A stretch of 64,000 bases of DNA. Source: a virus. The notes beneath the pieces were generated by a model. It was not told the origin of the DNA, made no database searches, and saw only the letters and a list, made by a program, of their open reading frames with translations. Positions 4,144 to 44,626 of this stretch are shown one piece after another (the stretch's first letter is position 1; every line of letters starts with the position of its first letter). The stretch is taken from positions 1-64,000 of IMG/VR virus record IMGVR_UViG_3300019360_000002. One strand, given 5' to 3'. Both the position numbers and the translations under genes were made by a program.

Positions 4144-5783
4144 GCCCGCCCGTGGAAGGGGCGAGCGAGCTGGACGAGGGGATGGACGACACGCCTCCTC
4201 CGCCGCAGCAGAAGCGCAAGCAACCGCAGCAGCAAGCGCCGCGCGAAGAGGTGTCGAGCACCGCCGAGGCGATGTCCCAGCAGGACGAGCGGTCGGTGTA
4301 CGAGTTTCTCACCGACCTGGGCACCGGGGCCAACCTCAAGATCAAGCTCATCCGCGTGTCGCCGAGCACGTGGCTTGGGCACAACATCAAGGGGCACCTC
4401 GACGAGTTCGACGCGCCGTTCACCGAGAAGGAGGTGTTCAACCGCTTCGGTGGCGGCAAGTACATGATCCGTACCTGGAAGCCGGGCGCACGCGGCAACC
4501 TCGTCTACTCCGGCACCAAGACCTTCGAGGTTGCCGGCGACCCGAAGGTGACTGGCGAGCTGACCCACGACGACGGCAAGGACACGCCGGTCACACCCCT
4601 CGAAGGTCCGGCAACGGTCCGTGCCATGGGCATGATGGAGCGCCAGGCCGAAGAGGAGCGCAAGCGCGCCGAGCGGTTCGAGAACGAAGCAAGGCAGAAC
4701 CGAAACGCCGGCCCGGACATGAACATGATCAACGCCGCGCTCACCCCGCTGCGTGACCAGATCAAGGCGATGAATGACCAGCTCATCGCCAACCAGAAGA
4801 TCATCTCGGACAAGGACGCGAAGATCCTGGAGCTTGTGACTCGCAAGCCGGAGTCCACGTTTCAGGACAAGCTCCTCGACAAGATGGTCGACGGCGAGAG
4901 CGCCCGCATCGAGTCCTTGCGCGAGAACCACGCCAGCGAGCTGCGCCAGCTCCGCGAGACGAACGCAAGCGACCTGAAGTCTGCTCGCGAGCACGCCCAG
5001 GACGAGCTGCGCCAGCGCGAGACCGTCCACACGCGCGAGATCGAGAACCTGAACCGGTCAATCGCCTCGACCACGGACGCGCTCAAGCTGTCGTACGAGG
5101 GGCGCATCGACGCGTTCAAGAGTCGTATCTCCGACCTGGAGCAAAGACTCACCCAGCAGGGCGCCGAGCTGGGTTCACTGCGCGACAAGAAGGACAAGGG
5201 CCTCATCGAGCAGATGGAGGAGATGGCGACGGTCAAGAACGCCATGGAAGCCCTCGGCATGGCCGGCGGACAAGAGCAAGGATCGGTCCTCGAACGCATC
5301 GCCATGGGCGTGCTCGACAGCCCGATCCTGAAGGCGGTCGCTACCCGTGTCGAACAGGCTCCGACCGCGCCTCCGCCCCCGCAGCGGCGCCGTCGAGCCC
5401 CGCCCCGCGAGCAGCAGCAGACCGTGAACGTGCCGCAGCAGCCGCCGGCTGAAGGAGCGCCACCGGCCGAAGGCCAACCGGGTCAGCCGGTCGGGCAGAT
5501 GGTTCCGGCCAAGAAGACCATCAAGATCAACCCAGCGGACGTGAAGATCGCCGTGAACCTGCTCGAAGGCGCCTTCAAGAACGGCACCGATCCCACGGTG
5601 TTCGCCGAGTCGGCGCGCAGCATGGTGCCCGGCGACATCCTGGGCGTGGTCAAGCAGATCGGGGTGGACGCGTTCCTAAAGGACGTGGCCCAGCTCGATA
5701 GCTCAAGTCCCCTCGCCACCATGGGCGGCAGGAATTTCCTGCGCAAGGTGGTCAAGTACCTCACCGAAGGCGTGACCGAGTAG
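4140..5783 (+). CDS. Large coiled-coil protein (possible assembly factor)
   Basis: 547 aa, GTGA-coupled start, long E/R/K/L/Q heptad region; no Walker A motif seen. Confidence 0.7.
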   Translation: MSPPVEGASELDEGMDDTPPPPQQKRKQPQQQAPREEVSSTAEAMSQQDERSVYEFLTDLGTGANLKIKLIRVSPSTWLGHNIKGHLDEFDAPFTEKEVFNRFGGGKYMIRTWKPGARGNLVYSGTKTFEVAGDPKVTGELTHDDGKDTPVTPLEGPATVRAMGMMERQAEEERKRAERFENEARQNRNAGPDMNMINAALTPLRDQIKAMNDQLIANQKIISDKDAKILELVTRKPESTFQDKLLDKMVDGESARIESLRENHASELRQLRETNASDLKSAREHAQDELRQRETVHTREIENLNRSIASTTDALKLSYEGRIDAFKSRISDLEQRLTQQGAELGSLRDKKDKGLIEQMEEMATVKNAMEALGMAGGQEQGSVLERIAMGVLDSPILKAVATRVEQAPTAPPPPQRRRRAPPREQQQTVNVPQQPPAEGAPPAEGQPGQPVGQMVPAKKTIKINPADVKIAVNLLEGAFKNGTDPTVFAESARSMVPGDILGVVKQIGVDAFLKDVAQLDSSSPLATMGGRNFLRKVVKYLTEGVTE

Positions 5784-5808
5784 CCAGCTCTCAACCAAGG
5801 AGAACACC

Positions 5809-6195
5809 ATGATCGACGGCTTCCGTATCGAGATGACGACCAGCGACCTCCAGAAGCACTGCATCGCCAAGTCCGAGGAGCACACCAAGCTCGCGGGCGA
5901 GTGCGAGACCCAGATCGCCAAGCGTGTCGAGGCCCGCAAGCAGGGCACCGAAGAAGGTGACCACGTCTACCACCGTATGTTCGAGTGGGACGACATCACC
6001 AAGCTGGGCATGCCGGAGCTGAAGACGCTCCAGACCATGCACAAGGAGCGCGCCAAGTACCTGGCGTTCGTCGCCGCCCATCTGCCGGCGAACGAGGTGC
6101 ACCGCCTGGGTCGCGAGGACCAGTTCGAGCTGGAGATGATCGGCACCTTCGTGCAGCGACTCACCGCGTGCGGCGGACGGCCGGAGGTGTTCTGA
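5809..6195 (+). CDS. Hypothetical protein
   Basis: AAGGAG RBS, 128 aa. Confidence 0.65.
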   Translation: MIDGFRIEMTTSDLQKHCIAKSEEHTKLAGECETQIAKRVEARKQGTEEGDHVYHRMFEWDDITKLGMPELKTLQTMHKERAKYLAFVAAHLPANEVHRLGREDQFELEMIGTFVQRLTACGGRPEVF

Positions 6196-6485
6196 TGGGC
6201 GACACAAGGAAGGATGCACAGCTCGGACCGTTCACCGACAAGTCGGTGACCAAGTTCGAGTTCTCACCGATCACGGTCACCGTCACCAAGGCGCGTGACG
6301 CAAGCCACGTTCCACCGGACGACGACTGCGGGTGCGGCAAGGAGGCAACGCTCGACAGCAGCATGATGGAGGCCGTCAAGCGGATGGGCGCGATCATCAT
6401 CGAGCACCTCCAGAAGATCCGCGCGCACCAGGAGAGCACGGCCTACGTGGACCCGCCGCCCCCGGCCGATCCGTCGCACTCGTAG
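6195..6485 (+). CDS. Hypothetical protein
   Basis: TGATG-coupled start MGDTRKD. Confidence 0.55.
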   Translation: MGDTRKDAQLGPFTDKSVTKFEFSPITVTVTKARDASHVPPDDDCGCGKEATLDSSMMEAVKRMGAIIIEHLQKIRAHQESTAYVDPPPPADPSHS

Positions 6486-6582
6486 CCACTTGCGCATCGC
6501 AAGACCCATCTGATACACTCCTTTAGTCTACCTCTCCGGTAGAAGCCGCCTGGTTCTGCGTAGCGTTGACGACAGCCGAATT

Positions 6583-8076
6583 TTGAAGCTGCCCTATCGT
6601 GGAGCGCCCCAAACGGTGGACGTGATCCGCGATGCTGCGCTCAAATCGCAGGACATCTACACGACACGCCTCATGGCCGAGGAGATCTGCGGCGACCTTC
6701 GGTCCAAGGACTATCTATCGGAGATTCTTGCCATCGACAACTTCGTCTGGTGTAACACCCGCTACATGCGCGACCCGCGCACGGTGGAGCTGGTGCAGGC
6801 GCCATACCTCATCACCGAGCAGCTCAAGGCCGGTAAGACGCCTCAGATCGACTGCTTACCGCAAGGAACGCTCCTGTTACAAGATGATATGTCGCTCGTC
6901 CCCATCGAGCGTGTGCGCCCTGGCATGCGGATATTCGGCAAGGATAGGTGGTCCGAAGTTGGCGCCGTAGCTTATAAAGGCGTGCTTCCGGTTTCTCATG
7001 TAAAGATGAACAACGGCTCATACTTCCGGGCCACCCAAGACCACATGGTTTACATCGGGTTATGCCCGAAGCACGAACACTTAAATGAAAAGTGTTACGC
7101 GGGAGCAGACACTAAACCGTGCGCGTGTTCTGATCTGTCGTGGGAGAGAGTTCGTGTGGGTGCCCTCAAGCCGCGCATGAGGTTGCTTTCACCAGACCGT
7201 ATACCTTTCGGTCAGGAGGAGATGGACCCTCGCCGTGCTTTGATTGACGGATACTACCTATCTGATGGTTGGTGTCAGGGGGCGTCTCTTAACATTTCCG
7301 GCCAAGACGGGTGCCCAAAGGAGGAGCAGAAGCGCGAGGTTGAGCGCATCTGCGACGAACTCGGCATAGCCACGACTTGGTACAGAAAAAGCATTTCGAT
7401 ACGTGATCTGGAGTGGGCCGGGCGCGCAGCCGCGATGGGTCACAAGGCACCAAACAAGCACGCCCTTTCCATCAATCTTTCCGAAGGCGCTGCGCGTGAA
7501 TTGTTGCGCGGCATCATGGCGGATAGTGGCGCCAACACCCATGGTTACGGTCGTACATTTACTTCCACCTCTAGGCAACTGCACCTCCAAACCCGGGTGC
7601 TGCACAAGATGTTCGGGGTGGTGTGCAGCGAGCAATACATCGTCGACCACGGCGGGCTCGGAGAAAACCCGATCTGGCGACTGGGTGTGCGTCAAACCGA
7701 TAGGAGCGATGGAAAAGCGGCAAAAGCCCTTCGTGTCAAAGAAACTCATCACGAAATAACCGAAGCTCCGGTCTACGACATCACCACCGATGACCACTAC
7801 GTGTATCTACCGTCGGCCGATGTCACCGTTAGCAACTGCGACGACATGGCCGGCTACATCTCGTCGCTTCTGCTCTCGGTGGGTTGCGAGACGCGAGTGG
7901 TCACCGTAGCTTTTCGGCACATGTTCTACGCCGGCAGGCGCCAGTTCTCGCATGTGTTTGCTCAGGGCAAGGAGCCCAAGTCTGGAACCTGGATCACCTG
8001 CGACCCGGTTGCGGGCGTGGACACCGACAAGATGCTTCGTCGCGTTGTGGCTGCCAAGGTTTGGCCCATCGCATAA
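6583..8076 (+). CDS. Transglutaminase-like (papain-fold) cysteine protease, intein-containing; putative maturation protease
   Basis: Removing the intein gives ~169 aa with RYMRDP...ID-CDD...FSHVF...WITCDP, a Cys-His-Asp triad. Confidence 0.8.
   Translation: MKLPYRGAPQTVDVIRDAALKSQDIYTTRLMAEEICGDLRSKDYLSEILAIDNFVWCNTRYMRDPRTVELVQAPYLITEQLKAGKTPQIDCLPQGTLLLQDDMSLVPIERVRPGMRIFGKDRWSEVGAVAYKGVLPVSHVKMNNGSYFRATQDHMVYIGLCPKHEHLNEKCYAGADTKPCACSDLSWERVRVGALKPRMRLLSPDRIPFGQEEMDPRRALIDGYYLSDGWCQGASLNISGQDGCPKEEQKREVERICDELGIATTWYRKSISIRDLEWAGRAAAMGHKAPNKHALSINLSEGAARELLRGIMADSGANTHGYGRTFTSTSRQLHLQTRVLHKMFGVVCSEQYIVDHGGLGENPIWRLGVRQTDRSDGKAAKALRVKETHHEITEAPVYDITTDDHYVYLPSADVTVSNCDDMAGYISSLLLSVGCETRVVTVAFRHMFYAGRRQFSHVFAQGKEPKSGTWITCDPVAGVDTDKMLRRVVAAKVWPIA
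6853..7836 (+). mobile_element. Intein (328 aa) with LAGLIDADG-type endonuclease domain
   Basis: Block A CLPQGT, block B ATQDH, endonuclease motifs LIDGYYLSDG and LLRGIMADSG, block F VYDITT, C-terminal SN|C; lower GC than its flanks. Confidence 0.92.
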
Positions 8077-8086
8077 GGAGAACCCC

Positions 8087-9046
8087 ATGGCTCGTCTTCG
8101 GCCCTCACATCCGTGGAACCCCGGCTACTCGATCCCCAAGAACGTGCTCGACGAGCCGTATGGCCAGGGTGTGATCGTCACCAAGCAGGCCAAGCGTGGC
8201 ACCATCTCGGCGCTCCAGCCCGAGTGGCTCGTCGACGGTGCCGGCGCCCCACCGCCCGCCGCACCGCTCGGCTCGCTCGGGTGTGCCCACGGCAACGGGT
8301 CACTCGGCGGGGCGACGATCAAGGGCAACTCGCTCCGCTCCGGCTCACTCGGCAGCTTGTCGGGCACATCGCTCGGCGCCAAGGGCGCAAACGGCGTAGA
8401 GGTCGGCGGCATGTCCGATCCCATCGCCAATTTCGGTCGCCAGGGTGCCGCGCTCATCATGAGCGAGGTGAAGTACCTGAAGGAGTCGGATCGCGTGGCG
8501 GCGATGCGCCACATCCTCGACTCCATCGACCCGCAACTCTTCGACATGGTGGCCAAGCGCGCCGAGGCGCTCGGCAAAAGCGGCGTCGTTCCGCGCGTCG
8601 CGATGGAGCGGGCACTCGCCGCCTCGCTCGCGGGCCGCTACCTGGAGCAGCTCGTGAAGATGGGCAAGACCGGTGCACCGCCCACCTTCGGCGTTCTCGG
8701 TCTCGGCCTCGGCACCGTCGACCCGGAGGGCCTGGGCGGCTTTTTCGCCGACGTGTGGGGCGGCATCAAAAAGGGCGCTGGCGCGGTCGGCTCAGCTGCC
8801 AAGACCGTCGGCAAGGGCATCGGCAAGCTCGCCTGCAAGGCGGCCGGCAACCCCGGCACATCTATCGCGGCAGGTGCGGCCGGCGGACCAGCGGGCGCGA
8901 CCGGTGCCCAGCTCGCCTCCGAGCTGTGTGGTGGCGGCACCCAGTCCGGTGGCGGCTACGTTCCGCCTCCGGCGGCACCGTTTCCCATCATGCCGGTTCT
9001 CCTCATCGGCGGCGGGCTGCTCGCCGTACTTGCGCTTCGCAAGTAA
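8087..9046 (+). CDS. Gly-rich virion membrane protein with C-terminal TM and basic tail
   Basis: AAGGAG RBS; repeated GSLG; ends PVLLIGGGLLAVLALRK. Confidence 0.7.
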   Translation: MARLRPSHPWNPGYSIPKNVLDEPYGQGVIVTKQAKRGTISALQPEWLVDGAGAPPPAAPLGSLGCAHGNGSLGGATIKGNSLRSGSLGSLSGTSLGAKGANGVEVGGMSDPIANFGRQGAALIMSEVKYLKESDRVAAMRHILDSIDPQLFDMVAKRAEALGKSGVVPRVAMERALAASLAGRYLEQLVKMGKTGAPPTFGVLGLGLGTVDPEGLGGFFADVWGGIKKGAGAVGSAAKTVGKGIGKLACKAAGNPGTSIAAGAAGGPAGATGAQLASELCGGGTQSGGGYVPPPAAPFPIMPVLLIGGGLLAVLALRK

Positions 9047-11087: not shown

Positions 11088-11201
11088 ATGAAGGTCGAGA
11101 ATGATATTTGGTGGACAGAGCCCGGGGGTTTCATCCCAGAGGCGTTTGTCGTTCCTCTGCTCGGCCTGATTGTCGTACTGTGGTGGGGGGGACGCAGGTG
11201 A
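11088..11201 (+). CDS. 37-aa membrane peptide (not in the ORF track)
   Basis: MKVENDIWWTEPGGFIPEAFVVPLLGLIVVLWWGGRR; GTGA-coupled to the next gene. Confidence 0.55.
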   Translation: MKVENDIWWTEPGGFIPEAFVVPLLGLIVVLWWGGRR

Positions 11202-11515
11202 TCTACTCCGTCTACAGGCCCGAGACCGGCGTCTACGACTACTACGAGACGCCGGAGCAGACCGCCAAGAACCCTGACCCTCAGTTCCTCACGGGTCGCG
11301 GCGCCACGGCAGCGCTTGGCCTCTCATCTACCGATGCCGGCTGGCAGCTCCCCGGTAACGCCCGCAAGGTCGGCGAGGGCAAGCAAGCGCGCGGCATGAT
11401 TGCGACCCGCAACGGCGGTAGCCTGGGCGGCTTCGAGGTCCCCGGCGGTGGGTTCGGCGTGGCCGCGATCCTGGGCGGTCTGTGGTGGCTTTTCGGCGGA
11501 AGGAAGCGGCGATGA
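11198..11515 (+). CDS. Tail-anchored membrane protein
   Basis: GTG start VIYSVY; GSLGG; ends AAILGGLWWLFGGRKRR. Confidence 0.65.
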   Translation: MIYSVYRPETGVYDYYETPEQTAKNPDPQFLTGRGATAALGLSSTDAGWQLPGNARKVGEGKQARGMIATRNGGSLGGFEVPGGGFGVAAILGGLWWLFGGRKRR

Positions 11516-12042
11516 CGCACCGTCGTGTGAACCCCGGCGAGCCCCCGCCCGAGCTGGCGGAGGCGATCGACGGCTACGAGGACTTCCACGCTTGGGAGCC
11601 GCGCGAGATCGGCGAGATGAACCTCGTCATTCCGACCACGGTGTGTGTGGTGGGAGAGATGGTCCAGACCCTCTACCGATCGGACAAGTGGGAGAACAAG
11701 TCGAGCGATTACTTCCACGACCACGACCCAGGTGTGATGATCGGTCGAACCGACGCGGCGGCTCGGGTCGCAAACCCTGGCTGCCAGACCGGCGTTCGCC
11801 TGCCTCACTGGATCACGGACGCCAAGGCGGTGTACATGCTTGGTCGATGTCTGGGCTATTCGTACACGCAACCGGACGGCGAGCCCATCGAGGCCAAGGT
11901 CGGGCGTCCGTTGCCAGAGCTTTATGCTGTGCCCAATCGCAAGGCACTGCTCGTCATCGACACGGCGGGGGACACGGCCGAATGCTTGGCCGTGATCTGG
12001 GGCGGCAACCTCATCGTGAAAGACGTGGGTATCGTAGGATGA
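11512..12042 (+). CDS. Putative virion protein with N-terminal RRVNP motif
   Basis: ATGA-coupled start; 176 aa, beta-rich. Confidence 0.65.
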   Translation: MTHRRVNPGEPPPELAEAIDGYEDFHAWEPREIGEMNLVIPTTVCVVGEMVQTLYRSDKWENKSSDYFHDHDPGVMIGRTDAAARVANPGCQTGVRLPHWITDAKAVYMLGRCLGYSYTQPDGEPIEAKVGRPLPELYAVPNRKALLVIDTAGDTAECLAVIWGGNLIVKDVGIVG

Positions 12043-12378: not shown

Positions 12379-12476
12379 TAGACTCGCAAGCGCCACTGCA
12401 CTCTCCGGTCAGTGGTGACGAGCTGGTCGCCCGTACTGCGTCGTTTACTGGCGGTCCGTCACCCTACGGAGAGAGC

Positions 12477-14045
12477 ATGCCCATCTGGTACGTGAACCCG
12501 AGTCGACCGCGAAAGCGCAGAAACGCTGCGCATCGCGTCACCCGCTCCTGGGCCGCCTCGCAGACCGGCCGGGCCACGAGCCCGAGCGGCATGCGGGCCA
12601 GACGTACCCAGGTTCGGCCCGTGGCGCGCACCATGCCGGGTTCGGCGTGGACACCTTCTCGGGCCAAGGCCAATGCTCGCAGGCGGAGAAACCCGGGCGG
12701 CCCTCTCCGTCTCTTCGGTGCCGCCGCCAAGGCACACGCCAAGAAGCAGCAGAAGCTTCGTCGGGCCAAGGCCCGCCGTTCGTTCCGAGATCACAAGGTG
12801 TCCGTACGTCGCCGTGGAAAAGTGACGACGGTGACCGTCAGAAACCCCAAAAAGAGAGGTTCAAGCATGAAGCGTCGTCGTCGCGCCCATCGCAATCCGT
12901 CTCCGAGCCGCCGTCGCCGTCGGGCGCGGCGCGCTCACGCGAACCCCATCCGTCGCCACCGTCAGCGTCGGAACCCGATGTACAAGGGGCACGCCAAGCA
13001 CAGGAAGGCGCAGCTCGCTCACCACCGCAAGTCGCCCAAGCGAGTTGCGGCTGGCAAGAAGGCGGCTCGCACGCGCAAGCGTCACGCCGCCGCCAAGAGC
13101 GGCACGCGTCGTCGCAAGTACCGTCGTGCCCCCACCCGGGGACGCGGCGTGAAGGCGCTGCGTCGTGCACGCAAGGCCATCCGCTACCAGCGCAAGCGCC
13201 GGGGCGGCAAGCGCGCCCGCGCCTACATGCGCCGTTACCGAATGAAGTCGAACCCGTCGCATCGCCGTCGTCGCAACCCGCGTCGCCGTCGTCACTACGG
13301 CGTGCGCTCGCTGCGTCGGGCGCGTCGCACCATCCGCCACCAGAAGCGGCGCGGTCGCGGCGCGGCCAAGTCGTTCATGCGGCACTACCGCATGCGCTCG
13401 AACCCGGGCGGGATCGTCGGCACGGTGGTGAGCGTCGTCAAGGCGGCGGTGCCCATCGCGCTGTCGTTCTACGGCGCGCGGTTCATCTCGGGCAAGATCT
13501 CCGAGAGGGTCCCGATGGTGAGCCGTCTTGGTCGCCACCGTGGTCCGGTGCTGGGCACCCTCCTCATCGTCGCCCAGGGCTTCGCGGCCAAGAAGGTCGC
13601 GTTCCTCGGTCGCCACAACTCCAGCATCATGGTCGGCCTCGGCGTGAACCTCGTCGACCAGCTCATCAAGGCGTACGCGCCGGCTAAGGTGCAGGCGTAC
13701 CTCGGTGACTCGTCCGACGTGTACTCGAACGCCATGATGGGCGAGTACATCGAGACCGGCGAGTACATCGAGACCGGTCTGGAGCAGGAGATGGGCGACT
13801 ACATCGAGACCGGCGCCCTGGAGCAGGAACTCGGCGACATGAGCCAGTCCGCCGAGGAAGAGCTGGGTCTGGAGCAGGAGATGGGCGGGTCGGCCGTGAT
13901 GAACGCGCCGGTTCCCACCCAGCGCATGCTCGCGCCCGTGCCGCAGCGCTCGTTCGTCGAGCAGGTGCCCCGCTGGACGCCCGCGTCGGACCGCAAGGAT
14001 CGCCTGTACCAGGGCATCTTCGCGGGCGGCTGGGGGGTTCGGTAA
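12477..14045 (+). CDS. Protamine-like DNA-condensing core protein with membrane domain and acidic repeats
   Basis: ~310 aa R/K/H-rich region punctuated by xNP motifs, then hydrophobic helices, then GEYIET/LEQEMG acidic repeats. Confidence 0.7.
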   Translation: MPIWYVNPSRPRKRRNAAHRVTRSWAASQTGRATSPSGMRARRTQVRPVARTMPGSAWTPSRAKANARRRRNPGGPLRLFGAAAKAHAKKQQKLRRAKARRSFRDHKVSVRRRGKVTTVTVRNPKKRGSSMKRRRRAHRNPSPSRRRRRARRAHANPIRRHRQRRNPMYKGHAKHRKAQLAHHRKSPKRVAAGKKAARTRKRHAAAKSGTRRRKYRRAPTRGRGVKALRRARKAIRYQRKRRGGKRARAYMRRYRMKSNPSHRRRRNPRRRRHYGVRSLRRARRTIRHQKRRGRGAAKSFMRHYRMRSNPGGIVGTVVSVVKAAVPIALSFYGARFISGKISERVPMVSRLGRHRGPVLGTLLIVAQGFAAKKVAFLGRHNSSIMVGLGVNLVDQLIKAYAPAKVQAYLGDSSDVYSNAMMGEYIETGEYIETGLEQEMGDYIETGALEQELGDMSQSAEEELGLEQEMGGSAVMNAPVPTQRMLAPVPQRSFVEQVPRWTPASDRKDRLYQGIFAGGWGVR

Positions 14046-14058
14046 CCTACTACTACAC

Positions 14059-14104
14059 CGGGGCCGGCGCGATGGCCCGTTGGGCGGAATAAGCGCCGGC
14101 CCCG
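14059..14104. terminator. 12-bp perfect inverted repeat (terminator or RNA processing/stability hairpin)
   Basis: CGGGGCCGGCGC at 14059-14070 and GCGCCGGCCCCG at 14093-14104; no immediate U-tract. Confidence 0.4.
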
Positions 14105-14243: not shown

Positions 14244-15672
14244 ATGCCACGTCTTCATGGAGTCAAGGAGCGTCTGCACCAGCCGTTCTGGGACACGCTC
14301 GTCCGCACCACGGGTCCCCTGGCCACGCCGATCCAGCAGACCTCACGTCTGTTCGGCAACGCCAACGTAAACGGCCTGTAAGCCGTCCTGCGTCGCCGGG
14401 CAGTAATGCCTGGTTGGTACTGGGTGAATAAAACTGAAGTGATAGAGTGAGGGTAATGCTCAAGGACACTGACATCGCGTGGTTGGCCGGACTCATCGAC
14501 GGAGAGGGGTGTTTGTACCTCGCCGTTCGGTCCGACAACACGGCGACCCGGGTTTCGCGCAGGACTGGCGAGACCGTTCAGTACGGGCCGTACTTCCAGG
14601 TGCGCTGCGACTTCAAGCTAGCCATGGCCGATCGAGAAACGATCGTTACTGCGGCCGGCATGATCGCGGAGATCCTGGGAACCACCGATGGCGTGTTGTT
14701 CCGAGAGGAGCGCCGTAAGGTTGTTCGCGCTCGTCCGCTCTGGCGCGTCGAACTCAGCTCGAAGGGGGCAATCAACACGCTCCTGAGAACCATTCGACCG
14801 TTCGTTCGGACGAAGGCGATCGAGGCAGACCTTTGCCTTGACTATCTATCGCATCTTCTGATCACACCGTGGCACAAGGCCACCCTGCGTGATCTGGAGC
14901 TGGCGAGATTGGCAACCGAACTCCGTCACGGCAGCGGTGAAGCCCGTGCTCAGGCAATCGTCATCCTGAGCCAGGTAACGCCGAGCCAAGCCGCAGAGGG
15001 CACCGACAGCACGTCGGGCTCTGCGGAAGGTCTAGAGACTAGCCGGGTGAGCGCCAGCAATAACCCCGGCCACGAGCGCCCAGCACCCCACCTTGCCGCT
15101 GTCGGCGGCGAGAGGGTGAAGACATAGTCCGAACCCGGGCAAAAGCCCGAGCGCCGTCTAAACAGCGGCGATTCCGACGGTTGACTGTCGGAAACATTTG
15201 GGGAAATCTATCGTTGACGAACCTTCAGGTCGCCGGCCAGTTGGCCAGCGATCAGACGTACGTCATCCTGGCGCTGCGCGCCTGGCTGTACTTCGACGGC
15301 ACCAACCGCCGCTCGAACTACCTCCAGGTCGCGTCGCAGCTCTACTTCACCCTGACCATCGGCAACAAGCCGCTGTTCCAGGCGCCCTGCTGGTACTACC
15401 CGTCGGGCGGCGGCGTCTGGGGCTTCGATGCCCAGGCGTTCGCGGCCAACACGTCGGGCTCGATCTTCAACCTGGGTGACCCCACCCAGGAGTCGATCCT
15501 GAAGCTGGCCCGTCCGATCATGGTGCCGGTGCGCCAGAACTTCGCCGTCGAGGCGCAGTTCTTCACCGTCGGCGCCACCAACGTGCTCACCAACCTGAAC
15601 GCTGGCGCCGCCGACGATCAGAAGGTGATCATGTTCGTCATCGATGGATTGCAGACCAGAGACGTTCAGTAA
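14244..15672 (+). CDS. Putative major capsid protein 1 (single jelly-roll-like, 198 aa); exons 14244-14368 and 15201-15672
   Basis: AAGGAAGG RBS; spliced product RLFGNANV|GNLSLTNLQVAGQL matches the uninterrupted paralog RLFGNTNIGNLVICNLQVAGQL at ~34323; strong codon bias; beta-rich. The capsid role is inferred. Confidence 0.65.
14369..15200 (+). mobile_element. Group I self-splicing intron
   Basis: 5' exon ends in U and intron ends in G; Q-like GGTAACGCCGAGCCAAG (~14973), R GGAAGGTCTAGAGACTA (15025-15041), S GAAGACATAGTCC (15118-15130); P7 GACTA/TAGTC; candidate P3 GTACTGGGTG/CGCCCAGCAC; splicing restores the frame. Confidence 0.9.
14456..15127 (+). CDS. Intron-encoded single-motif LAGLIDADG homing endonuclease
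   Basis: DIAWLAGLIDGEGCL motif; LRTIRPFVRTK. Confidence 0.88.
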   Translation: MLKDTDIAWLAGLIDGEGCLYLAVRSDNTATRVSRRTGETVQYGPYFQVRCDFKLAMADRETIVTAAGMIAEILGTTDGVLFREERRKVVRARPLWRVELSSKGAINTLLRTIRPFVRTKAIEADLCLDYLSHLLITPWHKATLRDLELARLATELRHGSGEARAQAIVILSQVTPSQAAEGTDSTSGSAEGLETSRVSASNNPGHERPAPHLAAVGGERVKT

Positions 15673-43215: not shown

Positions 43216-43901
43216 ACAAGAACGACGAGAAGCGGGTGCGCGAGATCGTGCGCGACATCATCACGGAGGAGCTGCCGGAGGCGATCGAGAAGGCACTCAA
43301 GGCGTTCAAGAAGGAACAGGCTACCGCGCTCGCGCGAAGGCCGGCGCCACCATCCGAGAGCGGCTTCACCGACTCCCCGCCCAGGCCGAAGACCCTGCCC
43401 ATCGACGACATGGTGGACGCGCTCGAAGAGCAGGCGTTCGCCCCCGTCGCCCAGGAGTACCATAAGCGGCGCGAGGTGGGCATGTCCAAGGCGCTGGCGG
43501 AGGTCATGGCCAAGCTGGAGCAGGGCATGGACCTCACGCCGATGGGCTTCGGCATGCCGGCCCACAGCTACTTCGGTAGGGACGAGCGCGAGGTGTCACC
43601 GACCGGCATGGGCGCCACGAACATCGTCGTGGGCGGCGTGGCGGGCTTCCGCGAGCACTTCATCCAGCTCGTCAGGGACGGCGCCAACGACCTCCACGCG
43701 GCCTACGAGGCGACGTGCCAGAAGTTCGGCGTGCCGTCACTCAAGAAGGCGGGGCTGTATGTAGGTGTGTTCGCCGAGCTGCCCGACACGGCAGGAGGCG
43801 GGTTCGCGCTGGGTCGTGGTCAAGCGGAAGAGAGAGTGGGCGGAAACAGGCAGCTCGGTCCGTTCGATGACGAGCCGACCGAAGATGAGGACGATCTCTA
43901 G
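43212..43901 (+). CDS. Hypothetical protein
   Basis: GTGA-coupled start, 229 aa. Confidence 0.6.
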   Translation: MNKNDEKRVREIVRDIITEELPEAIEKALKAFKKEQATALARRPAPPSESGFTDSPPRPKTLPIDDMVDALEEQAFAPVAQEYHKRREVGMSKALAEVMAKLEQGMDLTPMGFGMPAHSYFGRDEREVSPTGMGATNIVVGGVAGFREHFIQLVRDGANDLHAAYEATCQKFGVPSLKKAGLYVGVFAELPDTAGGGFALGRGQAEERVGGNRQLGPFDDEPTEDEDDL

Positions 43902-44626
43902 TTCGTGAACACCCCGTCGTATAGCCCACGCAGACTCTCGTTCTCCTCCAAGATCTCACGCACCTCTTCCACGTCGTCCGAGAGCGGCTCGCTGGCGTCC
44001 TCGGGCGACACCTCGTCCGAGACCTGCGATGACTCCGACCGCACCTCGTTCGCCTCGTCGCGGTCCTCGCGCTCTTCATCCATGGCGCGCTCGGACTCCA
44101 GCTCGCCGGGGCTCACGTAGCGGATGCCATTCGACACGCCGCGCCTGCGGCCGTTCTTGCCGTTCCGATAGCCGCTCAGGCCCGTCTTTCCGCCGGCCAC
44201 GCTCGGCGCAGTCATCACAGGCTGGCCGTCGATGAGGCCGACGAGACCAGGCAGGTAGGTCTGGAGGAGCGATTGAAAAAGCGCAATGGCGGAGCCGATG
44301 AGGATGGGCTCCTGGTACTTGCGAGCCTTCTCCCACTTGTTGGCGGCGTACCAGAGGCCGATGAGGGTCGCCAGGCTGCCGAGGGGGCCGAAGTGCCGGG
44401 CGAACCGACCACCGGCAAGGCGCTGGCCGAGGAGCACCCGGCCGAACTTGCCGCCCAGGCGGGTGACGGCGTAGCCGCCGATGCCGGGGCCGACCATCAT
44501 CGCCATGCCCGTGGCCATGTCCATGGCCTGGGACGCCGGGTTCTTGCGATGCGCAACCGGCTGTCTGCGCGCGTTACGGAACGACGCCAGCTTGCTTCGC
44601 GAGGCCGCAGACTTTTTCTTGGACAT
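43898..44626 (-). CDS. Membrane protein paralogous to the core protein at 12477
   Basis: Basic N-terminus with RKNP, a similar hydrophobic block (RHFGPLG...I.IG....L...L.TYLP) and acidic tail ending LYDGVF. Confidence 0.65.
   Translation of the reverse strand: MSKKKSAASRSKLASFRNARRQPVAHRKNPASQAMDMATGMAMMVGPGIGGYAVTRLGGKFGRVLLGQRLAGGRFARHFGPLGSLATLIGLWYAANKWEKARKYQEPILIGSAIALFQSLLQTYLPGLVGLIDGQPVMTAPSVAGGKTGLSGYRNGKNGRRRGVSNGIRYVSPGELESERAMDEEREDRDEANEVRSESSQVSDEVSPEDASEPLSDDVEEVREILEENESLRGLYDGVFTN

Follow-up and report, generated by a model that had tools for sequence, protein, structure and literature searches.

What use does a virus have for a protein whose first 300 residues hold 116 lysines and arginines and a single acidic residue? 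The question is raised by a gene at 12477-14045 (+) of the stretch of DNA analysed here. This stretch, 64,000 nucleotides long and called the window below, corresponds to bases 1-64000 of the complete 83,535-bp record IMGVR_UViG_3300019360_000002, a genome with direct terminal repeats from an uncultured virus. The original prediction described the product as a tripartite core protein made of a protamine-like region, a membrane domain and acidic repeats. To judge from its composition and the position of its gene, the most likely role of the protein is to bind viral DNA and compact it, and this role is not described for cultured bacterial viruses. We lean, with slightly better than even confidence, towards a virion-internal polycation that neutralises DNA and ties the genome to an inner layer in a tailless virus whose capsid is of the jelly-roll type.

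The open reading frame (ORF) at 12477-14045 (+) is a real coding gene. The G+C content at third codon positions (GC3) was 0.833 in this frame, compared with 0.664 in an antisense ORF of 472 aa and 0.588 in the +2 ORF, in a genome of 63% GC. Because of this contrast and the conservation of the protein, whose C-terminal half was matched by 177 cluster representatives, an artefact of high GC content or a wrong frame was ruled out. The gene and the parts of its product are the following.

12477..14045, plus strand: whole gene, 522 codons and a stop codon, product of 59.7 kDa, from the ORF list
12468..12475, plus strand: Shine-Dalgarno-like GGAGAGAG, just 5′ of the ATG at 12477, from sequence reading
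12477..12500, plus strand: N-terminal octapeptide MPIWYVNP, family pattern M-P-[ILV]-x-[YF]-[VI]-N-P
12477..13403, plus strand: polycationic arm, aa 1-309, with 90 Arg, 29 Lys, 1 acidic residue, a net charge of about +118 and 9 Asn-Pro pairs
13146..13256, plus strand: copy 1 of the pre-core basic unit (GVKALRRARKAIRYQ...YMRRYRMKSNP), aa 224-260, from local alignment of the copies
13299..13406, plus strand: copy 2 of the pre-core basic unit (GVRSLRRARRTIRHQ...FMRHYRMRSNP), aa 275-310, family-wide in the alignments and predicted to form two short helices
13401..13406, plus strand: junction Asn309-Pro310 between arm and hydrophobic core, invariant in alignments A1 and A4 and placed in a loop by the AlphaFold2 model
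13413..13676, plus strand: hydrophobic three-helix core (H1 aa 313-344, H2 348-373, H3 381-400), from the AlphaFold2 model and hydrophobicity
13740..13886, plus strand: acidic Tyr/Glu repeats (GEYIET twice, GDYIET once, LEQE[ML]G three times, AEEELG once), predicted disordered
13929..14042, plus strand: conserved C-terminal peptide PxRSF..QVP......D....LYxGIFxGG[FW]G, from alignments A1 and A4

The order of arm, hydrophobic helices, acidic repeats and aromatic C-terminal peptide was found family-wide. Among 49 full-length members the arm measured 133-435 aa, the sequence between conserved elements was free to vary, and the net charge of the arm had a median of +102 (range +60 to +160). Lysine and arginine made up 38% of the target arm and 33-54% of the family arms. 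An arm variable in length and sequence, joined to a conserved core, is as expected of a non-specific electrostatic binder. A role as tape measure, on the other hand, is unlikely because of the variation in arm length. The octapeptide pattern opened 55 of 175 family proteins, and many of the others were fragments or began further in. The basic unit of 37 aa had been described as duplicated, which was confirmed by a BLOSUM62 local score of 120 for aa 224-260 against 275-310; family member P0006 likewise carries two copies.

The tandem acidic repeats announced for the C-terminal region were also present, with G[ED]YIET and LEQE[ML]G each occurring three times, and at 13740-13838 Tandem Repeats Finder reported periods of 18 and 39 nt. 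The isoelectric point is 4.09 for the tail (aa 413-522), which ends in LYQGIFAGGWGVR; in the C-terminal peptide G513 and F515 were invariant and G518 nearly so (alignments A1 and A4). It had further been proposed that the acidic tail acts as an intramolecular chaperone for the basic region. The net charge of the tail, with a median of about -13, was not correlated with the arm charge, which ranged from +60 to +160 (Spearman 0.12, p 0.40). The tail as a stoichiometric neutraliser, and with it a chaperone of that kind, was not supported.

The family was large. A word-indexed search gave 45 metagenomic homologs, and the C-terminal 220 aa matched 177 representatives of clusters at 50% identity at E<=0.001, of which 141 remained at E<=1e-10 and 40 at E<=1e-30. 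Their length was 76-610 aa, with no longer fused form among them, and several homologs lay on contigs of 72-93 kb. The conserved elements comprised the KLYGAAAKAHAKK module, the VAAGKKAARTRKRN module, the octapeptide, the basic unit of about 37 aa ending in RRYRMRSNP and the hydrophobic helices, followed on the C-terminal side by GDYIEVG and EEELG repeats and by PxRSFTxQVP...LYxGIFxGGFG. For the target itself, hmmscan against Pfam-A (E<=1), PHROGs and NCBIfam returned no family, and a profile search of PDB sequences returned nothing. A megablast of 10 kb against phage records gave no match, a scan of IMG/VR gave no confirmed relative, and PHROGs and Pfam searches of 20 neighbouring proteins gave nothing beyond weak hits. 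Within the same genome, one more member was present.

43901..44626, minus strand: short paralog of 242 aa, with a 27-aa basic lead ending in RKNP, a helical core as in the target, an acidic region and a C-terminal LYDGVF

The alignment of profile A1 with this paralog by hhalign had a probability of 97.3% and an E value of 2.7e-11 over 195 columns, with N and P at the junction columns.

We were particularly interested in the Asn-Pro (NP) pairs of the arm. They lie at residues 7, 72, 123, 140, 156, 166, 259, 267 and 309, in the contexts VNP, RRNP, VRNP, HRNP, HANP, RRNP, KSNP, RRNP and RSNP in this order, exactly as first listed. Asn stood before Pro in 9/11 cases in the arm and in 0/4 cases after it. 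The target ORF held 9 NP where 0.83 were expected. In 46 family proteins 227 NP were counted against 18.1 expected when each arm was shuffled, and 42 of these proteins exceeded the maximum of 200 shuffles. Dipeptides were then compared in 127 arms of at least 40 aa, taken from the 175 proteins, with the junction site left out. NP occurred 408 times against 31.3 expected (13.0-fold), and 63.5% of the arm Asn preceded Pro. The other pairs ending in Pro were at chance: SP 75 versus 79.1 (0.95-fold), TP 55 versus 62.2 (0.88-fold), GP 63 versus 72.1 (0.87-fold) and DP 8 versus 5.7 (1.4-fold). Conservation of the motif in homologs held at the level of the family, with the reservation that internal NP was absent from 3 of the 127 arms; SP and TP together outnumbered NP in 13.

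The consensus of 344 internal sites was R-R-x-[RK]-[RK]-N-P-[RAS]-[RK]-[RK]-R, which places NP within arginine runs. Pro was directly followed by Arg or Lys at only about 30% of the sites. The motifs had been called periodic, and this did not hold. The spacings were 65, 51, 17, 16, 10, 93, 8 and 42 residues in the target and 7-283 residues in the family, with no period. The site at the junction was nearly invariant. Among 176 sequences, 28 of them gapped at this column, Asn was found in 146 and Pro in 141 of 148 aligned residues, and Asn was never replaced by Ser, Thr or Asp. The context is RxR[SR]NPG in a predicted loop, and the same Asn-Pro is present in the short paralog.

Several sources of these pairs were considered. 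All eight AACCC strings of the arm are in frame 0, and the NP codons varied among 10 loci (AAC 54, AAT 13; CCG 44, CCC 15, CCA 7, CCT 1). These results indicate that NP is selected at the protein level, and a DNA-level AACCC motif was ruled out. Half-sites of a palindrome found genome-wide were rejected as well, since of three TCGCAA in the gene only those at 12890 and 13271 coincide with NP (codons 140 and 267). Ribosome skipping of the 2A type was rejected because NPGP made up only 4 of 610 NP in the 175 family proteins. Asn and Pro are described in the literature as marking helix starts. A generic turn or helix cap, in which SP, TP or DP could take the place of NP, was weakened by the enrichment of NP only; a literature search for "Asx-Pro turn" found no paper. 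Specificity for Asn, together with the nearly invariant junction Asn, is as predicted by a chemical role for this residue.

NP had also been pointed out near the N-termini of other proteins. Across the remaining 96 predicted genes 44 NP were counted against 37.4 expected, which is the level of chance, and five of these genes had NP in the first 30 aa. Of the sites pointed out, only the RKNP of the gene starting at 44626 has meaning, as the junction NP of the paralog. The RRVNP of the 11482 protein occurred only in its close relatives in loci L002-L004 and was absent from L006, L011, L014 and L015, and the WNP at 8087 was replaced by WDG, WQP or WDP in orthologs. NP as a site common to virion proteins was rejected. 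Within this virus NP enrichment is private to the target's family, and it is specific for Asn.

The original prediction went further and regarded the arm as a polyprotein. In this explanation the arm would be cut at most or all Asn-Pro bonds, by self-cleavage of the Asn-lyase type or by a conserved transglutaminase-like Cys protease encoded in the same module, and protamine-like peptides of 8-93 residues would be freed from their anchor. The 13-fold enrichment of NP, the chance levels of SP, TP, DP and GP, the avoidance of Asn elsewhere in the arm and the junction Asn all argue for it, and the predicted fragments would all be basic (net +4 to +40). A Cys-protease-like gene is moreover syntenic with the target. 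Three orthologs, the window copy among them, scored 17.6, 19.8 and 22.0 bits with Transglut_core, all below the cut-off of 23 bits. The window copy (6583-8076) encodes 497 aa, compared with 176-200 aa in loci L014 (5067-5597) and L015 (3602-4204), and this difference fits an insertion (intein) in the window copy.

The spacing of the sites is irregular, however, the few arms lacking internal NP or richer in SP and TP do not suit obligatory cutting, and X-Pro bonds are poor substrates for most endopeptidases. Sites of adenain, the adenovirus protease, recur in several virion precursors, unlike NP, which is not enriched in the other proteins of this virus. Precedents for self-cleavage at Asn-Pro are described for YscU/FlhB (family N6, Asn-Pro-Thr-His) and the reovirus coat protein mu1 (N7) (PMC3207474), for RsgI (PMC10328401) and for aquareovirus VP5 (N7) (PMC9148132). 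As in the target, a strictly conserved Asn-Pro lies beside a membrane-proximal segment in these Asn peptide lyases, and RsgI and FlhB are described as cutting close to transmembrane helices. In contrast, the documented lyase sites all lie in folded domains with defined turns, whereas the internal sites here lie within Arg runs and our model covers aa 272-522 only. FlhB needs NPTH, and no site of the target is followed in this way. Searches of Pfam and PDB sequences gave no match of the target to an Asn-lyase autoprocessing domain, and its fold had no PDB match. Taken together, extensive cutting of the arm appears unlikely, although it is the best of the alternatives.

The structure of the C-terminal half was modelled with AlphaFold2 for aa 272-522, using an alignment of 45 sequences. 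The core is helical, with long helices at 313-344, 348-373 and 381-400 and a predicted local distance difference test score (pLDDT) of 82-94 over aa 312-411. Two short basic helices (276-292 and 295-303) had pLDDT 70-79, the junction NP fell in a loop, the acidic repeats (aa 413-472) were disordered with pLDDT <50, and the C-terminal peptide was moderately confident. Foldseek of the core model against PDB and BFVD gave no match at E<=0.001, and the ESM Atlas returned only unnamed viral clusters.

This core had been called a membrane domain. As criterion for a transmembrane segment, a window of 19 residues with a Kyte-Doolittle mean >=1.6 was used. The target had one such window at 1.85 (aa 311-329). 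In the family the maximum had a median of 1.56 and only 67 of 174 members reached 1.6, and most members have a conserved D319/K322 in helix 1. With hydrophobicity this borderline, membrane insertion is plausible, not established, and the modelled three-helix core is possibly either a membrane anchor or an oligomerisation domain. The tripartite core protein thus kept its family-wide order, its polycationic composition and its position in a structural module, while its membrane part, and with it any tethering to a membrane, rested on a borderline hydrophobicity signal.

The neighbourhood of the gene was compared in 15 related loci. In 12 of them the ortholog of the coat-gene candidate is found directly downstream of the target, and the other three end too early to show it. 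The protease-like gene, the genes at 11108 and 11482, a second coat gene and spike genes were syntenic in the longer loci. The coat candidate is intact in L014 (10860-11438), L015, L001, L008 and L009 (193 aa, MPRLHGV...). The L014 ortholog gave a beta-rich model with pLDDT 55, whose Foldseek list consisted almost entirely of viral jelly-roll capsid proteins, including those of PBCV-1, SPV1 (6oj0) and SH1 (6qt9), none at E<=0.001. The match to SPV1 6oj0 had a probability of 0.90 and an E value of 0.014, below significance. This weak but consistent signal suggests a coat candidate of jelly-roll type. In the window the coat candidate (14245-15672) is split into an N-terminal part from 14245 and a C-terminal part at 15181-15672. 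An ORF of LAGLIDADG type lies between them at 14447-15127, with relatives at the same place in L007, L011 and L013.

Signals of packaging were looked for in the complete 83,535-bp genome. The Pfam models Pox_A32, FtsK_SpoIIIE, Terminase_6N and HK97 Phage_capsid gave no match there at E<=1, and, apart from one low-complexity basic stretch (75314), the Walker-A pattern was confined to ORFs resembling helicases, primases and kinases (57121, 53597 and 50092). The premise that a packaging motor is lacking is drawn from three Pfam ATPase models and the Walker-A pattern only. The lack of a recognisable motor fits a genome organised by protein and is no proof of it.

From these data we infer a protein located in the virion, which would bind DNA, associate with a membrane and use its two termini for docking. 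The arm of 309 residues would bind the 83.5-kb genome without sequence specificity and neutralise part of its charge. The genome of 83,535 bp carries about 167,000 phosphates, and by simple arithmetic roughly 440 copies would neutralise 30% of this charge. The three-helix core would oligomerise in or on the inner layer, which may be an internal membrane or a layer below the capsomers. The hydrophobic N-terminal octapeptide and the aromatic C-terminal peptide would dock to other components of the shell, and the genome would be tied to the shell in this way. We take the Asn-Pro pairs to be elements of recognition or conformation, and allow for no more than a single cut during maturation, located at the invariant junction.

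Several points weigh against this explanation. The virus is uncultured and the protein is known here from sequence alone. The arm matches no family in Pfam, PHROGs, NCBIfam or PDB sequences, the coat model is of low confidence and the E values of its Foldseek matches all exceed 0.001, and the transmembrane signal is borderline. The main difficulty is the topology, as an arm of +118 should remain on the cytoplasmic face. Were the inner membrane to pinch off from the cell membrane, as it does in PRD1, this face would turn toward the shell and not toward the DNA. The arm would face the DNA only if the membrane formed around a pre-condensed nucleoprotein, as in SPV1, and the absent signal of a packaging ATPase fits such a course. 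Moreover, strict Asn specificity and an invariant junction Asn suit a cleavage-like chemistry better than a turn or cap, in which Ser, Thr and Asp would be expected to substitute.

Alternatively the arm could be a spacer on the cytoplasmic face, between capsid and inner membrane, where it would bind the head groups of acidic lipids and the inside of the capsid instead of DNA and act as a cement or assembly factor. The positive-inside rule, an established principle, would keep the arm on this face if it applies here, the conserved terminal peptides resemble docking motifs, and the gene adjoins the coat genes. VP11 of Thermus phage P23-77 is reportedly a minor capsid protein of basic character that sits between the shell and the membrane. 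However, an arm charge of +60 to +160 and a length of 133-435 aa at similar genome size (contigs of 72-93 kb) are unlike a ruler or a cement of fixed geometry, and the transmembrane character is itself uncertain. We regard a spacer as quite improbable.

A different course would combine condensation with cleavage. In a motor-free assembly, a membrane-anchored "protamine" would condense the replicated genome, and the core and docking peptides would recruit lipid and the jelly-roll shell. A self-cut of the Asn-lyase type at the Asn-Pro hinge, perhaps at internal NP too, would then free the DNA-bound arm. Such an assembly has, in our estimate, a slim chance of being correct. If true, it would represent a new architecture of DNA-condensing proteins and the first polycation that cleaves itself at Asn-Pro.

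In the weakest alternative the arm would not organise DNA in the particle; it would either be a DNA pilot, active on membranes and brought in together with the genome, or compact the host nucleoid. Arginine-rich peptides do act on membranes and bind nucleic acids of any kind, and the short paralog lies outside the virion module on the other strand. With the conserved position of the gene in the structural module, immediately before the coat gene, and nothing specific in its favour, this alternative is very improbable.

The target was compared with known DNA-condensing proteins. Adenain has its own consensus site, which is not Asn-Pro. The adenovirus proteins pVII and pre-mu (pX) are virion proteins that condense a linear dsDNA genome and are matured by the adenovirus protease. 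Like the target they are arginine-rich, they belong to a capsid of jelly-roll lineage, as is proposed here, and the target's module holds a Cys-protease-like gene; the peptides predicted under the cleavage explanation would be of similar size to pVII and mu. However, no sequence relationship was found (Pfam-A at E<=1, PHROGs and NCBIfam, no match), and the target, at 59.7 kDa and with a hydrophobic helical core and an acidic tail, does not have the size of a small precursor. The host of the target virus is probably bacterial.

Ascovirus P64 is closer in size than pVII and mu. It is described as an extremely basic, multi-domain virion protein of about 60 kDa whose basic domain was found by experiment to condense a large dsDNA genome (PMC6163548). 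The two are alike in size and basicity. P64 belongs to an insect virus, and going by its description the target is set apart by its hydrophobic core and acidic repeats; the family searches, made without a P64 sequence, showed no homology. The basic virion proteins described for PBCV-1 (PMC3281028) offer a functional precedent. In Portogloboviridae, SPV1 is described as having a shell of single-jelly-roll proteins, a layer of lipid and a core of nucleoprotein made up of VP1 and DNA (PMC8459092). Shell, membrane and protein-condensed DNA are as proposed here, and the fold hit of the coat candidate to 6oj0 was sub-significant. SPV1, in contrast, is a 20-kb archaeal virus, and the comparison was made by the description of VP1.

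The SPKK/SPXX motifs are reported as minor-groove motifs of the sperm histones H1 and H2B (PMC9903204). In that account, as in the target, a short Pro-containing motif is repeated in a lysine/arginine-rich arm that compacts DNA. The target motif differs in being N-P-x-(R/K)-(R/K), with a first residue that is strictly Asn and with SP and TP at chance.

Core proteins resembling protamines occur in viruses of eukaryotes, among them adenoviruses, baculoviruses, asfarviruses and ascoviruses. For phages, one paper says in its Introduction that evidence for a large contribution of basic proteins to DNA neutralisation is lacking, and holds small cations and polyamines responsible (PMC3281028). Our literature search found no arginine-rich core protein of a tailless bacterial virus, with about 1.7 million PubMed Central (PMC) articles and supplementary files outside the scope of the search. 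According to the present data the family is extensive and uncharacterised, with 177 clusters or more at 50% identity, and is encoded beside coat genes of a jelly-roll-like type, the contigs being about 70-93 kb long. If the favoured explanation is true, protein-mediated and possibly motor-free encapsidation extends to large prokaryotic viruses, and the assembly pathway becomes testable. The strictly Asn-specific NP also raises the question whether Asn-Pro can cut itself in an arginine-rich context. Four points are new in this analysis. Specificity for Asn was tested, the junction was nearly invariant across 148 sequences, NP was controlled over the whole genome, and arm and tail did not scale with each other.

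Two further signals lie in and beside the gene.

14059..14104, plus strand: GC hairpin with no U tract, 14 nt 3′ of the target stop codon, from RNA folding
12853..12869, plus strand: internal Shine-Dalgarno-like AGAGAGG with an in-frame ATG (codon 131), candidate start of a nested form of 392 aa

The hairpin folded at -38.8 kcal/mol (z -3.9), and an equally good fold was found in 0 of 200 shuffles. It consists of a 12-bp GC stem enclosing a small inner hairpin and ends about 140 nt 5′ of the coat-gene ATG at 14245. Since no U tract follows, this may be a structure that stabilises or attenuates the transcript between the target and the coat gene.

The ATG at codon 131 is preceded by AAAAAGAGAGGT...AGC. 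The 18 nt 5′ of it are nearly identical in loci L002 and L004 despite a protein identity of only 57-64%. In L006, L009, L010, L011 and L015 a similar Shine-Dalgarno-like string and ATG stand just 5′ of the LYGAAA module instead, and the L014 arm has no internal ATG. Of 48 proteins with the LYGAAA module, 14 start there, 21 have an internal Met at most 12 aa upstream, and 13, the target included, have none. Because purine-rich Lys and Arg codons make Shine-Dalgarno-like strings common, a nested start that would give a shorter arm is kept as a possibility only. Of the five rare AGA Arg codons in the gene, three directly precede Asn (AGA AAC at 12519-12524, 12687-12692 and 12840-12845). Two of these three Asn begin an NP pair, which may be chance or a trace of local duplication.

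Family contigs of 46-81 kb (P0014, P0023, L014 and L015) were binned in metagenome-assembled genomes of Kofleriaceae, Gemmatimonadota and Thermomicrobiales. The L014 and L015 contigs, each of about 80 kb, sit in bins of different phyla. Because the bin labels disagree, these contigs are probably free viral genomes mis-binned by composition, and the host is not readable from the bins.

Repeats were also seen in relatives of two neighbouring genes. The gene at 11482-12042, directly upstream of the target, encodes a conserved C-terminal domain that closes with ...WGG.L.V.D.GIVG. In its close relatives (L002 2352-3224 and L003 2076-2945) the N-terminal module NPG(N/D)PPPELAEAIDGYED(F)HA is duplicated, and the N-terminus is extended by long, unrelated stretches. 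The 7952-9046 gene, whose start is probably at 8087, encodes an N-terminal P-W-x-(P/G)-G-Y-x-I-P-x-Y-V-x-x-E-P-x-G-R-G, which occurs twice in the L014 ortholog (5606-6595).

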